The notes beneath the pieces were generated by a model, which searched no databases, was not told the DNA's origin, and saw only the letters and a program-made list of their open reading frames with translations. DNA of 32,930 nucleotides from NCBI GenBank assembly GCA_965197725.1, contig CBDANQ010000047.1, forward strand, positions 1-32,930, given 5' to 3'. Both the position numbers and the translations under genes were made by a program. This DNA comes from Longimicrobiales bacterium. Its GTDB lineage: Bacteria; Gemmatimonadota; Gemmatimonadetes; Longimicrobiales; Gaopeijiaceae. This document shows, in pieces, positions 3,446-6,636 of the stretch. Position 1 is the first letter of the stretch; every line of letters begins with the position of its first letter.

Positions 3446-3695
3446 CAAGAACAAGAACGGCCCTACAACCGCAGTCGTAGAGCCGTTGATCGGGACGGCC
3501 GGATGGAGCTGCGGTCGCGACCCACGCGTTCCGCGCTGGCCGCTCGACTCGAACCTACGGTTCTGGCGGGCGACTTTCGTCGCCCGACGCGTGCTCGCTT
3601 TGCGAGCCCGCTGAATCCGGCCACCCCGATCAACCTCAAGAACAAGAACGGCCCTACAACCGCAGTCGTAGAGCCGTTGATCGGGACGGCCGGAT
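3446..3695 (-). repeat. tRNA-Pro(GGG)-linked repeat unit (59-bp direct repeat, period 191 bp)
   Basis: 3446-3504 is identical to 3637-3695 (tRNA 3' end from ATCC plus the downstream hairpin); inverted copy of the tRNA 3' end at 3613-3634. Confidence 0.95.
3638..3678 (-). terminator. Terminator-like hairpin after tRNA-Pro(GGG), duplicated at ~3447-3487
   Basis: Minus strand AACGGCTCTACGAC-tgcg-GTTGTAGGGCCGTT followed by CTTGTTCTT. Confidence 0.55.
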
Positions 3696-3754
3696 TCGAA
3701 CCGGCGACCCCTGCAACCCCATTGCAGTGCGCTACCGGGCTGCGCCACGTCCCG
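3681..3754 (-). tRNA. tRNA-Pro(GGG)
   Basis: CGGGACGTGGCGCAGCCCGGTAGCGCA CTGCA-ATGGGGT-TGCAG GGGTCGCCGGTTCGAATCCGGCCGTCCCGA. Confidence 0.97.
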
Positions 3755-3763
3755 AGGGGGCGA

Positions 3764-3792
3764 AAGGTATACGCGGGCCGGGGCACCCTCAA
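3764..3792 (-). promoter_or_regulatory. Putative sigma70 promoter for tRNA-Pro(GGG)
   Basis: TTGAGG-17 nt-TACCTT ending 10 nt before the tRNA. Confidence 0.45.
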
Positions 3793-3914
3793 CTCCAGAC
3801 GAAGAGAAGCTCCGTGAGTACCGCAAATGTCGTGCTAAAGACGGTGGCCTCACGCGCCGATGTTGTCCGTGAAAGGACGTATCCGATGAGTGCCACGGCG
3901 ACCCGTCAAACGGG

Positions 3915-3944
3915 TTGACCGCCGGTTGGCCGGTCGTATAACTT
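3915..3944 (+). promoter_or_regulatory. Putative sigma70 promoter for the tRNA operon
   Basis: TTGACC (3915) with TATAAC at 16 nt or TAACTT at 18 nt spacing, just upstream of tRNA-fMet. Confidence 0.65.
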
Positions 3945-3956
3945 CCTCGTCTCTGT

Positions 3957-4030
3957 TGCGGGGTGGAGCAGTCTGGTAGCTCGTCGGGCTCATAACCCGA
4001 AGGTCGCAGGTTCGAATCCTGCCCCCGCTA
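3957..4030 (+). tRNA. initiator tRNA-fMet(CAT)
   Basis: Three G-C pairs in the anticodon stem (GGG-CTCATAA-CCC), 1:72 mismatch (T:T), GGTTCGAATCC. Confidence 0.97.
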
Positions 4031-4191
4031 TTAGCTCGCGAAGCGCCGCCGCCGGGCGGCGTTTCCCACGTTAGGACGACCCTGGGAGATGAACGTTGCA
4101 GACGTCGAGTTTCTGGACAGTCACTGATACGTGGAGCCCGCGAAGGCGGGCGGGAGCGGGGAGCCGGTAACATCGGCTTCTCCGACGAATT

Positions 4192-4227
4192 CCCGCCCTC
4201 GCCCTCTAAGGGCCGGGCGGGTTTTTT
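4192..4227 (+). terminator. Intrinsic terminator-like hairpin inside the tRNA cluster
   Basis: CCCGCCC...GGGCGGG followed by TTTTTT, 5 nt before tRNA-Phe. Confidence 0.7.
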
Positions 4228-4232
4228 GTCTA

Positions 4233-4305
4233 GGCCAGGTAGCTCAGTTGGTAGAGCACATGACTGAAAATCATGGTGTCGGCAGTTCGATTCTGCCCCT
4301 GGCCA
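4233..4305 (+). tRNA. tRNA-Phe(GAA)
   Basis: Cloverleaf; anticodon arm CATGA-CTGAAAA-TCATG. Confidence 0.96.
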
Positions 4306-4348
4306 TTTTCGCTCGTGGGCAAGACTGGCTCGCGCGAGATTGATTAGA

Positions 4349-4421
4349 AGGCCCGTAGCTCAATTGGTAGAGCACCGGTCTCCAAAACCGGCGGTTGGGG
4401 GTTCGATTCCCTCCGGGCCTG
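4349..4421 (+). tRNA. tRNA-Trp(CCA)
   Basis: Anticodon arm CCGGT-CTCCAAA-ACCGG. Confidence 0.96.
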
Positions 4422-4437
4422 TGCACATGCCGGGAGG

Positions 4438-4509
4438 GCCCCGATCGTCTAACGGTTAGGACACCACTCTTTCAAGGTGGAGACCGGGGTTCGATTCCCC
4501 GTCGGGGCG
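4438..4509 (+). tRNA. tRNA-Glu(TTC)
   Basis: Anticodon arm CCACT-CTTTCAA-GGTGG. Confidence 0.96.
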
Positions 4510-4539
4510 TAGGAAGGACGCAGGACCAGAGACACATGG

Positions 4540-4613
4540 GGGGCTGTAGCTCAGTCGGTTAGAGTGCCGGTCTGTCACACCGGAGGTCGCGAGTTCGAGT
4601 CTCGTCAGCCCCG
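4540..4613 (+). tRNA. tRNA-Asp(GTC)
   Basis: Anticodon arm CCGGT-CTGTCAC-ACCGG. Confidence 0.96.
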
Positions 4614-4680
4614 CTGGAGTTGATTGACATACGAAGTCGGCAGGTGCCGTCAGGGTGTCGGCTTCTAGGTCGTGTGTGCG

Positions 4681-4753
4681 GGGGCCGTAGCTCAGTTGGG
4701 AGAGCGCTTGAATGGCATTCAAGAGGTCAGGGGTTCGATTCCCCTCGGCTCCA
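4681..4753 (+). tRNA. tRNA-Ala(GGC)
   Basis: G3:U70 pair; anticodon arm CTTGA-ATGGCAT-TCAAG. Confidence 0.96.
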
Positions 4754-4782
4754 TGTTGCTCGGGTCAGTAGGCCCGTGCCGA

Positions 4783-4867
4783 GCTCGGGTGGCGGAATTG
4801 GTAGACGCGCAGGGTTCAGGACCCTGTGGGGGTTAACCCCGTGAGGGTTCGAGTCCCTCCTCGAGCA
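4783..4867 (+). tRNA. tRNA-Leu(CAG)
   Basis: Long variable arm; CAGGG-TTCAGGA-CCCTG. Confidence 0.96.
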
Positions 4868-4905
4868 TCGCTGATCCGCCTAGCGGGCTGGACGCTCTAG
4901 GTGTC

Positions 4906-4989
4906 GCCCACGTGCTGGAATTGGTAGACAGGCTGGTTTGAGGGACCAGTGTCGGAAACGGCGTACAGGTTCGAGTCCTGTCGTGGGCA
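4906..4989 (+). tRNA. tRNA-Leu(GAG)
   Basis: Long variable arm; CTGGT-TTGAGGG-ACCAG. Confidence 0.96.
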
Positions 4990-5036
4990 CTCTTTCGCCA
5001 CGCCTGGCGAAAGATGCAGGTAGGCTGTTGCTGTAA

Positions 5037-5110
5037 GCGCCCGTAGCTCAGCTGGATAGAGTGCCTGGCTACGGACCAGGAGGTCGGGGGTTCGAATCCC
5101 TCCGGGCGCG
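5037..5110 (+). tRNA. tRNA-Arg(ACG)
   Basis: CCTGG-CTACGGA-CCAGG. Confidence 0.96.
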
Positions 5111-5137
5111 TAACGGACTCTGGGGTTCGAGGGGATC

Positions 5138-5211
5138 GGGCGCGTAGCTCAGTTGGTTAGAGCGCTACGTTGACATCGTAGAGGTCACAGGTTCGAATCC
5201 TGTCGCGCCCA
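5138..5211 (+). tRNA. tRNA-Val(GAC)
   Basis: CTACG-TTGACAT-CGTAG. Confidence 0.96.
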
Positions 5212-5224
5212 TGGAGAACCAGGG

Positions 5225-5297
5225 GGGGCCGTAGCTCAGTTGGGAGAGCGCAGCGTTCGCAACGCTGAGGTCAGGGGTTCGATTCCCCTCGGCTCCA
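5225..5297 (+). tRNA. tRNA-Ala(CGC)
   Basis: Identical to Ala(GGC) outside the anticodon arm CAGCG-TTCGCAA-CGCTG. Confidence 0.96.
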
Positions 5298-5308
5298 TTT
5301 ACGAGATC

Positions 5309-5381
5309 GCCACCATAGCTCAGTTGGTAGAGCACGTCACTCGTAATGACGGGGTCGTCGGTTCAAATCCGACTGGTGGCT
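5309..5381 (+). tRNA. tRNA-Thr(CGT)
   Basis: CGTCA-CTCGTAA-TGACG. Confidence 0.96.
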
Positions 5382-5386
5382 CTTGA

Positions 5387-5459
5387 TGCCCCGTGGTGTA
5401 ATTGGCAACACGCCGGATTCTGGTTCCGGAGAGTCTAGGTTCGATCCCTAGCGGGGCAA
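5387..5459 (+). tRNA. tRNA-Gln(CTG)
   Basis: CCGGA-TTCTGGT-TCCGG; U1:A72. Confidence 0.95.
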
Positions 5460-5484
5460 TTTTGGGAGACCGCGGTCTCCGCTT

Positions 5485-5568
5485 GGAGGGATGGCCGAGT
5501 GGCTTATGGCGGCGCCCTGCTAAGGCGTTGGTGGCAACACCGCGTGGGTTCGAATCCCACTCCCTCCG
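5485..5568 (+). tRNA. tRNA-Ser(GCT)
   Basis: Long variable arm; GCGCC-CTGCTAA-GGCGT. Confidence 0.96.
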
Positions 5569-5737
5569 CTGAAAGAACGAAGCAGTGCGGTAGTGGGGTT
5601 GGAACCCACGTGATCTTCGCAGAAGATCACAGAGTGGGTTCGGGTCGAGCGACGGAGAGGGCCCGGAATGAGCCGAAAGGTTGTTCCGCGAGACGACCGA
5701 GCAAAAGCGAGGTCCATCCCACTCCCTCCGCTGAAAG
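5554..5737 (+). repeat. tRNA-Ser(GCT)-linked repeat unit (period 162 bp)
   Basis: ATCCCACTCCCTCCGCTGAAAG at 5554-5575 and 5716-5737, flanking a structured insert homologous to the Ser(GGA) units. Confidence 0.95.
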
Positions 5738-5772
5738 GATGGTCTGTGCCCTTCCGCGGCACGAAGGGCCGT

Positions 5773-5856
5773 GGACGGGTGGCCGAGTGGCTTAAGGCGC
5801 ACGATTGGAAATCGTGTGGGCTCACGCCCGCGTGGGTTCGAATCCCACCCCGTCCG
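5773..5856 (+). tRNA. tRNA-Ser(GGA)
   Basis: Long variable arm; CACGA-TTGGAAA-TCGTG. Confidence 0.96.
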
Positions 5857-6312
5857 TCATTAGGAAAGGCTGTTGTGTTCGAACCCACGTGATCTTCGCA
5901 GAAGATCACAGAGTGGGTCGGGTCGAGCGACGGAGAGGGCGCGGAATGAGTGAGGCGGGTGTTTCGCGAGACGACCGAGCGAAGCGAGGTCCATCCCACC
6001 CCGTCCGTCATTAGGAAAGGCTGTTGTGTTCGAACCCACGTGATCTTCGCAGAAGATCACAGAGTGGGTTCGGGTCGAGCGACGGAGAGGGCGCGGAATG
6101 AGTGGTGCGGGTGTTTCGCGAGACGACCGAGCGAAGCGAGGTCCATCCCACCCCGTCCGTCATTAGGAAAGGCTGTTGTGTTCGAACCCACGTGATCTTC
6201 TCAGAAGATCACAGAGTGGGTTCGGGTCGAGCGACGGAGAGGGCGCGGAATGAGTGGTGCGGGTGTTTCGCGAGACGACCGAGCGAAGCGAGGTCCATCC
6301 CACCCCGTCCGT
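5842..6312 (+). repeat. Three tandem tRNA-Ser(GGA)-linked units (151/152/152 bp)
   Basis: ATCCCACCCCGTCCGT recurs at 5842, 5993, 6145 and 6297; the units are nearly identical. Confidence 0.97.
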
Positions 6313-6337
6313 GTTGTGTTTGCACCCGAGTAGGATC

Positions 6338-6411
6338 CGGGGCGTGGCTCAGTCCGGTAGAGCGCTGCGTTCGGGTCGCAGAGGTCCCCGGTTCGAATCC
6401 GGGCGCCCCGA
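6338..6411 (+). tRNA. tRNA-Pro(CGG)
   Basis: CTGCG-TTCGGGT-CGCAG. Confidence 0.96.
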
Positions 6412-6636
6412 TTGGTTAATGCCGCCGAAGGCGGCGCTGTTTGATGTTGTGAGCCCGGGTTCGGACAGACGGTTCGAGCCGAGGCGCAGAGGCGTTGATC
6501 CGCGCAGGCGGCCTGCCGGGCTATTTGCCGAGACGACCGAGCGAAGCGAGGTCCATCCGGGCGCCCCGATTGGTTAATGCCGCCGAAGGCGGCGCTGTTT
6601 GATGTTGTGAGCCCGGGTTCGGACAGACGGTTCGAG
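6397..6636 (+). repeat. tRNA-Pro(CGG)-linked repeat (one full 158-bp unit plus a partial copy)
   Basis: 82-bp direct repeat at 6397-6478 and 6555-6636; the insert ends in CGAGACGACCGAGCGAAGCGAGGTCC as in the Ser units. Confidence 0.95.

Follow-up and report, generated by a model that had tools for sequence, protein, structure and literature searches.

tRNA-linked repeats broken at one T-loop bond in a Longimicrobiales genome and their possible origin as a gene-less single-stranded-DNA element

Introduction

Four tRNA genes in a 32,930-nucleotide stretch of DNA from a Longimicrobiales bacterium (contig CBDANQ010000047.1 of assembly GCA_965197725.1; hereafter the window) are each followed by repeats of the tRNA's own 3′-end, and the locus raises the question of what these units are and how they came to lie behind different tRNAs at one and the same bond of the T loop. 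ARAGORN and Rfam both call these four genes, among 18 tRNA genes in the window. The units belong to the tRNA-linked repeats (TLRs), a family described in Escherichia coli whose origin and general function, according to the available part of PMC8144298, have gone unexplained for decades. The explanation favoured here, with moderate confidence, is that each unit marks a survivable insertion of a small non-autonomous single-stranded-DNA element whose exact target lies in the T loop. What is new is this proposed and testable origin of TLRs as a gene-less element.

Repeat units of the window

Measured from one ATCC to the next, the units are 191 bp behind Pro(GGG), 162 bp behind Ser(GCT), 151, 152 and 152 bp behind Ser(GGA), and 158 bp behind Pro(CGG), that is one, one, three and one units per locus. 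The repeat starts at A59 of the T loop in all six, giving the break TTCGA^ATCC, and the inserts (cores) measure 44, 72, 71, 71, 71 and 77 nt. These values bear out a preliminary description of the locus, which had proposed six units of 151-191 bp with a single T-loop break and inserts of 44-77 nt; its further claim of a shared structured non-coding core at one T-loop bond, explained neither by local duplication nor by att sites, also holds. The features are as follows.

3679..3755, minus strand: tRNA-Pro(GGG), break between 3696 (A58) and 3695 (A59)
3505..3695, minus strand: Pro(GGG) 191-bp unit, with tail, spacer hairpin, antisense arm (3613-3634), two hairpins, GGTTCGA (3549-3555) and core (3505-3548)
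3435..3504, minus strand: distal 70-nt repeat of the Pro(GGG) tail and spacer
5485..5569, plus strand: tRNA-Ser(GCT), break at 5553/5554
5554..5715, plus strand: Ser(GCT) 162-bp unit, with tail, spacer, antisense arm (5593-5610), triloop hairpin (5610-5630), sense half of the T arm (to 5643) and core (5644-5715)
5716..5737, plus strand: distal copy of the Ser(GCT) 3′-end, seen in the sequence
5772..5858, plus strand: tRNA-Ser(GGA), break at 5841/5842
5842..6296, plus strand: three tandem Ser(GGA) units (5842-5992, 5993-6144, 6145-6296) with cores at 5922-5992, 6074-6144 and 6226-6296
6297..6312, plus strand: distal copy of the Ser(GGA) 3′-end
6338..6411, plus strand: tRNA-Pro(CGG), break at 6396/6397
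6397..6554, plus strand: Pro(CGG) 158-bp unit, with tail, triloop hairpin, degenerate antisense arm (6453-6466), GGTTCGA (6471-6477) and core (6478-6554)
6555..6636, plus strand: second Pro(CGG) left block (tail to GGTTCGA) without a core, then a spacer hairpin that is also present in relatives

All units had been described as having one architecture. The antisense arms are real but unequal: 22 nt at 91% match in Pro(GGG), 18 nt at 89% in Ser(GCT), perfect over just the 11 nt against the 5′ side of the T arm in Ser(GGA), and degenerate in Pro(CGG). The sense copy of the Pro units equals the tRNA only over GGTTCG(A), and the first Ser(GGA) unit lacks one T of its sense copy. The Ser(GCT) and Ser(GGA) units are near-identical in the antisense arm, the middle hairpin and the start of the insert and differ in their tails; the end of the insert is common to Ser and Pro units.

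The units are no assembly artefact, as contigs of runs X1 and X2 cross unit junctions with 0 differences at 3400-3666, 5955-6174 and 6449-6636, both runs coming from one sample that is possibly the assembly's own source and hence not independent. As had been stated before, no integrase, transposase or reverse transcriptase (RT) was found in the window, here among the 26 of 128 listed open reading frames (ORFs) scanned against Pfam. Three further units lie outside the window in the same genome (61 contigs, 89% complete): a 215-bp unit at the transfer-messenger RNA (tmRNA) gene on contig C40, with its break at the same loop position, and two units at att remnants, one of tRNA-Ser (C25) and one of tRNA-Cys (C48).

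Kinship with the tRNA-linked repeats of E. coli

The architecture had been thought unrecognised, and a match to a described tRNA-linked repeat family of this architecture had been named beforehand as a refutation. It is not new: the window units share with the TLRs of E. coli a position behind a tRNA gene, an identical 3′-end, copy number (1-5 per locus), internal layout and terminal hairpin. All 16 tRNA-linked units extracted from E. coli K-12 break at TTCGA^ATCC, the bond broken in the window, and the tyr, serX, proK, lysQ and lysV units run in the same order, from tail and spacer through antisense arm and hairpin to GGTTCGA and insert, with an antisense copy and a split T loop. The terminal hairpin is of the GAGCGAAGCGAG type in both, and both include a short class without a sense copy. 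The five E. coli tRNA types with TLRs all have ATCC loops, the Val(TAC) genes of the same operons carry no unit, and the break of three E. coli TLRs lies in 5S rRNA.

In E. coli K-12 the stretch of tRNA end found in a TLR is 18-19 bp long (PMC8144298, available part), which with CCA included counts back to position 58/59. The repeat of the window family is 15-16 nt, shorter because CCA is not encoded. Apart from this length, the two differ in host phylum and in the bare and permuted insertions seen in the window family. The 178-bp tyrT/tyrV repeats are TLRs covered by the Rfam family RtT (RF00391; threshold 45 bits), which scores E. coli TLRs at 46-137 bits as a positive control and has no match in the window at E up to 10 and none in five family genomes. 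Given the shared layout and defining features, the window units are therefore TLRs outside the sequence range of RF00391.

The available part of PMC8144298 describes the 18-19-bp repeat without an antisense layout or mobility and gives no known function. No account of T-loop insertion or TLR mobility was found in the literature searched, and an earlier description of the antisense layout is possible in older work. Enterobacterial prophage ends carry TLRs on Ser att remnants, and the E. coli lysQ unit matches 26 records of a plasmid collection (many of them chromosome-sized) and two short phage records, none feature-annotated there; the window units have no plasmid or phage match. A mobilome preprint (10.1101/2024.07.17.603846, available part) reports raised coverage at tyrT-rttR, which it reads as RNA/DNA hybrids and not as circles.

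Distribution in relatives and the target rule

A covariance model of the insert and its flanking motifs (R1, built from 11 sequences) matches 67 of 141 family genomes, with 408 matches in all. Beyond the family it has matches in 9 of 150 genomes across the class and in 12 of 61 relatives of a Novosphingobium metagenome-assembled genome (MAG) at E 0.05 (five at E <1e-3), and it scores the E. coli lysQ unit at 22 bits (E 2.3e-4 in 7 kb). Two genomes that each consist of a single contig, G449 and G013, have 31 and 10 matches, and G003 (99% complete) has five. The matches examined were the best 150 of the 408, reached through 106 loci, together with earlier and later loci.

Among 195 non-redundant examined hits, 154 are followed by a tRNA 3′-end, called by a 13-nt rule requiring 11 matches; ATCC comes next in 150 of these 154, and GGTTCGA stands before the core in 115. 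The remaining 41 comprise 20 just downstream of a same-strand tRNA, nine within elements resembling miniature inverted-repeat transposable elements (MITEs), one beside an attC-like end, and 11 that are decayed, at contig edges or misaligned. It had been asked whether such hits lie only at tRNA 3′-ends; at least 10 of the 195 lie outside any tRNA context.

Because R1 carries flanking motifs, a model-free count was also made over 43 tRNA-cluster loci, among which kin are not independent. A 3′-end duplication follows 60 of 206 tRNA genes with A59-T60 versus 3 of 340 others, and the Thr, Tyr and Arg(ACG) genes with A59-T60 have none. Targets in the family include Cys, Val and tmRNA. Empty orthologous sites, a search for which had been suggested, do occur: the same tRNA cluster is occupied in some genomes and empty in others, with 0 to 4 copies per gene. 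For 27 of 111 cores the nearest neighbour lies in the same genome (permuted mean 2.8), and for 37 of 111 it lies at another tRNA class.

The antisense arm is optional in relatives: of 148 distinct units, an antisense test is passed by the tmRNA unit and by 100 tRNA units (Arg(CCG) units in 1 of 10 cases). A unit's own tRNA class is the best fit for the arm in 81 of the 101 units that have one. Of 50 countable arms, nine have GA facing G57-A58, which places a GA/GA mismatch at the break. A simple filter recovered 18 units of a short class (56-84 bp) made of a tail, an antisense copy up to ATCC and one hairpin. Behind tRNA-Phe and tRNA-Gly, metagenome contigs (L090:153-360 and L063) hold units with a reversed terminal hairpin; the Phe unit breaks at TCGA^TTCC.

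Fold of the core

A long stem and a terminal hairpin make up the fold of the core; tandem GA/GA steps occur in each, and the pairs covary. In an alignment fitted to the model, and biased for that reason, 90.6% of cells are paired and 10 of 12 pairs are changed on both sides, against 24-44% in slid controls; a plain MAFFT alignment of the 11 sequences gives 92% paired, with two-sided changes in 4 of 12 pairs. Loop types were counted in 91 units less than 70% alike, with 281 unit-free spacers as control. C-GNA-G triloops number 109 on the tRNA-like strand and 3 on the other (shuffles 9.6±3.3), compared with 22 and 17 in the unit-free spacers, and E. coli TLRs have the same bias (25 versus 3). 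Tandem GA/GA steps give 120 versus 13 and 57 in the same count, GNRA loops number 25, and cUUCGg is absent. Hairpins of the GCGNAGC type are a DNA motif, and in DNA form their stability greatly exceeds that of the RNA counterpart examined (PMC13037366, available part). Judged by eye from the sequences, the antisense arm, sense half, long stem and terminal hairpin would meet in a four-arm junction that leaves a single base unpaired at the right break.

Bare and permuted insertions

In relatives, 21 hand-picked cores split a tRNA stretch so that GGTTCGA directly precedes the core and ATCC directly follows it, and neither a duplication nor an antisense arm is present. Compared with real tRNAs their flanks agree in 18-25 of 25 bases on the left and 5-14 of 14 on the right. 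They are found in att remnants beside islands, in three genes of an accessory array (L276) and in whole genes that have an intact twin; in L237, L277 and, in a Novosphingobium MAG relative, L338, the interrupted whole gene is followed by its intact copy. Removal of the core in silico restored an ARAGORN tRNA in five of six whole interrupted genes. The cores therefore occur in three layouts with two exact junctions: bare, with a replacement 3′-end, and with a replacement 5′ part. In the MITE-like elements, too, the core is placed at CGA^AT. The antisense arm is not required for insertion. A reading of the cores as tRNA introns was ruled out by the decayed acceptor ends and by the intact twins of interrupted copies.

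Array L385:5995-7900 of G449 holds about 20 partly degenerate tRNA genes, three of them interrupted by cores, and adjoins an IS481-type transposase. The MITE-like elements (L269:1032-1309) are about 270 bp long, have terminal inverted repeats starting TAGTG and are packed with GA-rich hairpin modules; further loci with such elements are L275, L290, L299, L301, L302, L303, L305 and L307, and many copies are likely in G449, G483 and G502. At L361:1090-1200 and L296 a core sits at GA^ATC directly before a GTTAGRY end, which we take to resemble the right end of attC; the left half of an attC was not found there.

Origin of the units

In the proposed mechanism the mobile part would be a core of 40-100 nt, made of a long stem rich in GA and, after it, a terminal hairpin of the GCGNAGC type, and would act as folded single-stranded DNA on the tRNA-like strand. 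Its insertion point would be (T/C)CGA^AT within a hairpin loop, which in practice means the A58-A59 bond of a T loop, and joining would neither add nor remove a base. Since a bare insertion kills a working tRNA gene, bare cores would persist only in spare copies such as att remnants and accessory arrays. Working genes would keep only rebuilding forms, either a core with a replacement 3′-end and the intact gene upstream, as in the window and in E. coli, or a core with a replacement 5′ part and the intact gene downstream. The antisense arm may pair with the tail and the sense half so that the composite closes into a multi-arm fold, and it probably aids movement of the composite or target pairing without being essential. 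Tandem copies could arise by re-insertion at a rebuilt junction or by unequal recombination. Movement would pass through a single-stranded intermediate, with the bare core as a mobile form and circles as a possible stage, and the enzyme may be a strand-transfer nuclease rarely supplied in trans, HUH-like or a small GIY-YIG protein acting with host ligation.

Several observations weigh against this explanation. Neither an autonomous copy nor a recurring enzyme was found among 150 ORFs beside element loci. Y1_Tnp occurs in just 6 of 141 family genomes, with none in the window's own genome (G000, 89% complete), and a small GIY-YIG protein in 1 of 141, which itself has no core hits. Neither an excised circle nor a transposition event was seen. 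The 258 weaker R1 matches beyond the best 150 of 408 fall mostly outside the examined set, and some examined hits lack a tRNA context, as noted above. The terminal hairpin alone is generic, as 0 of 80 examined metagenome loci held a unit in the same orientation. Similarity among cores mostly follows tRNA class (74 of 111; permuted mean 38), and the cores have diverged from one another; most copies therefore appear to be old, with a good deal of vertical inheritance. Full units occur at att remnants too (L235, L263, C25), and a deletion running from one GGTTCGA copy to the other could turn a full unit into a bare core; that this is the only route is less likely given the non-tRNA sites and the three independent cases seen in a single array. 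Transcripts of E. coli TLRs are processed, and RrB binds Hfq and CsrA (PMC8144298, available part).

In an unlikely alternative, the units are functional RNA modules, either read-through tRNA-end mimics giving rise to small RNAs or antisense arms that refold pre-tRNA and so adjust its processing, their structure being kept by selection on RNA. The E. coli RrA/B/F RNAs are transcribed, processed and bound by CsrA and Hfq, and the repeat has been proposed as an RNase E signal (PMC8144298, available part). Every unit also lies on the transcribed strand, the arm fits its own tRNA class best, and contigs of an RNA run from relatives (X18) cover unit sequence, showing neither strand nor level. Patchy presence (each gene has 0 to 4 copies), the occurrence of cores and units within broken genes and in att remnants that lack a promoter, DNA-type loops lacking cUUCGg and the modest deletion phenotypes in E. 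coli speak against it, while secondary domestication of some copies is likely. An element with an RNA intermediate, in which pre-tRNA read-through RNA is copied by an RT acting in trans and primed at an ATCC nick, seems improbable. Its products would share one 3′ junction but vary on the left, and inversions would occur; in the window the right junction is indeed fixed and the duplicated stretch varies from 16 to 82 bp. Some cores are preceded by 19-24 nt of true tRNA 5′ sequence (L310, L311, L313), and the window's own genome has RT matches. However, the left junction (GA^G) is no less exact than the right one, the loops are of DNA type, the best RT match carries a group II intron maturase domain, and no 5′ truncations inside cores caught the eye.

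Copying of hairpin modules among similar loops by host repair or replication, through fold-back synthesis, template switching or a UvrC/Cho-like nuclease and with no dedicated enzyme, is not likely either. It would fit the lack of any mobile-element enzyme common in the family and the near-perfect inverted copies that reach into spacer DNA, as expected of fold-back synthesis. A UvrC-like GIY-YIG paralogue of about 400 aa is present in 61 of 67 genomes with cores versus 44 of 74 without, an association confounded by kinship and completeness, and G003 has no match to it despite its five core matches; moreover, one bond across three phyla and in non-tRNA loops is hard to obtain from repair alone. 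The idea that the units are scars of tyrosine-integrase islands shrunk by deletion is largely refuted and very improbable. The same tRNAs do host integrases in these genomes, but real att remnants start 5′ of the T loop (C61:105736-105767 for Pro(CGG), matching window 6383-6414) and are themselves interrupted by cores, and the core is common to several tRNA classes. Lambda-type integrases have an overlap of 7 bp, for which the distal TLR copy, starting inside the loop, leaves no room.

For the favoured single-stranded-DNA element, the family offers material missing from E. coli, namely about 150 diverged units, insertions in bare and in permuted form, and sites that are empty, and it yields a target rule (A59-T60 loops), two exact junctions and a testable DNA-level fold applicable to the E. 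coli repeats. A real element of this kind would explain the broken tRNA copies of islands and arrays and might point to a new strand-transfer enzyme. A bolder extension, which we regard as doubtful, is that TLRs, for which an explanation has been lacking since 1978, form one branch of a class of gene-less single-stranded-DNA elements that spans phyla. Its members would read the DNA hairpin loop CGA^AT, carry an antisense arm matched to the target, which would fold the unit into a four-arm junction and guide it to the cognate tRNA gene, rebuild the gene they hit and be moved by an enzyme family not yet tied to transposition. Such a class, if it exists, would be a natural, DNA-guided system for programmed insertion of DNA without a scar.

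Candidate enzymes and comparison with known systems

A mover of the HUH/REP (repetitive extragenic palindromic), GIY-YIG or RT type had been suggested, and none could be confirmed from the counts and the RT match given above. The Y1 loci of family genomes carry no core motif, and GIY-YIG Pfam hits in 71 family genomes all fall in frames of at least 174 aa. Longer ORF-bearing copies, proposed as the autonomous partner, did not turn up in a search for orphan ends in five genomes.

IS200/IS605 elements and REP/REPIN sequences show exact insertion without target duplication, subterminal DNA hairpins, gene-less derivatives and tandem arrays, and in these traits resemble the window family. Insertion without target duplication is found in the bare cores (for which a deletion origin is also possible). 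Unlike IS200/IS605 and REP, the window family needs sequence on both sides of the break; the Y1 gene is rare in the family, and the GTAG foot of REP type is missing, as 2 of 148 units end near GTAG. A term search of the available parts of PMC3733652 and bioRxiv 10.1101/279083, on REP/IS200 systems, found no tRNA targeting. The window units also resemble integrase att duplications, in that a replacement 3′-end rebuilds the gene and the displaced end lies distally. They differ in a break inside the loop at 58/59 and a size of only 60-250 bp; neither a duplication across the crossover loop nor an integrase inside the element was found in them.

The Ssn GIY-YIG NTS/SRM systems (PMC11893778) use strand-specific single-stranded DNA hairpins, like the window family, and the short units here have a TC-AT..AT-CT stem edge like that of the SRM. 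The available part of that paper gives no tRNA link, and its SRMs flank the nuclease gene and are scattered. No Ssn gene was found near a core, and no small GIY-YIG gene next to the repeats or in core-rich genomes. A degenerate SRM motif matched 0 of 148 units and likewise scored 0 in the Ssn-type control locus L198. At L198, L195 and L541 (Novosphingobium MAG, G468) palindromes, SRM-like or of other kinds, lie on either side of a small GIY-YIG gene of the Ssn type, and none of these genes is beside a tRNA.

Other observations

Exact pattern scans, either too narrow or too generic, gave four loci in genome contigs, matches in 2 of 401 phylum genomes and 0 in viral sequences. The 80 loci examined for the terminal hairpin pattern in metagenomes were mostly unrelated repeats, and none of 80 examined for the left-end pattern in viral contigs had a tRNA or a core. 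A repeat family of AT-rich, probably eukaryotic genomes has nested hairpins with the same GAGCGNAGCGAG motif (L043, L045, L048 and about 35 more loci), a motif also seen at gene starts in GC-rich contigs.

A different repeat class of 190-300 bp lies behind tRNA-Ser(CGA), with TCGA before the repeated tail (L016:872-1080, L294, L306, L009). A related stretch lies near the Pro and Ser genes of G000 C44, where a second, unit-free Pro(CGG)-Ser(CGA) pair (25065-25290) stands beside an integrase, possibly as island cargo or contamination. In the window, at 3124-3385, an ORF (2678-3391) that matched no Pfam family contains 9-bp repeats encoding Lys-Ser-Glu/Gly runs.

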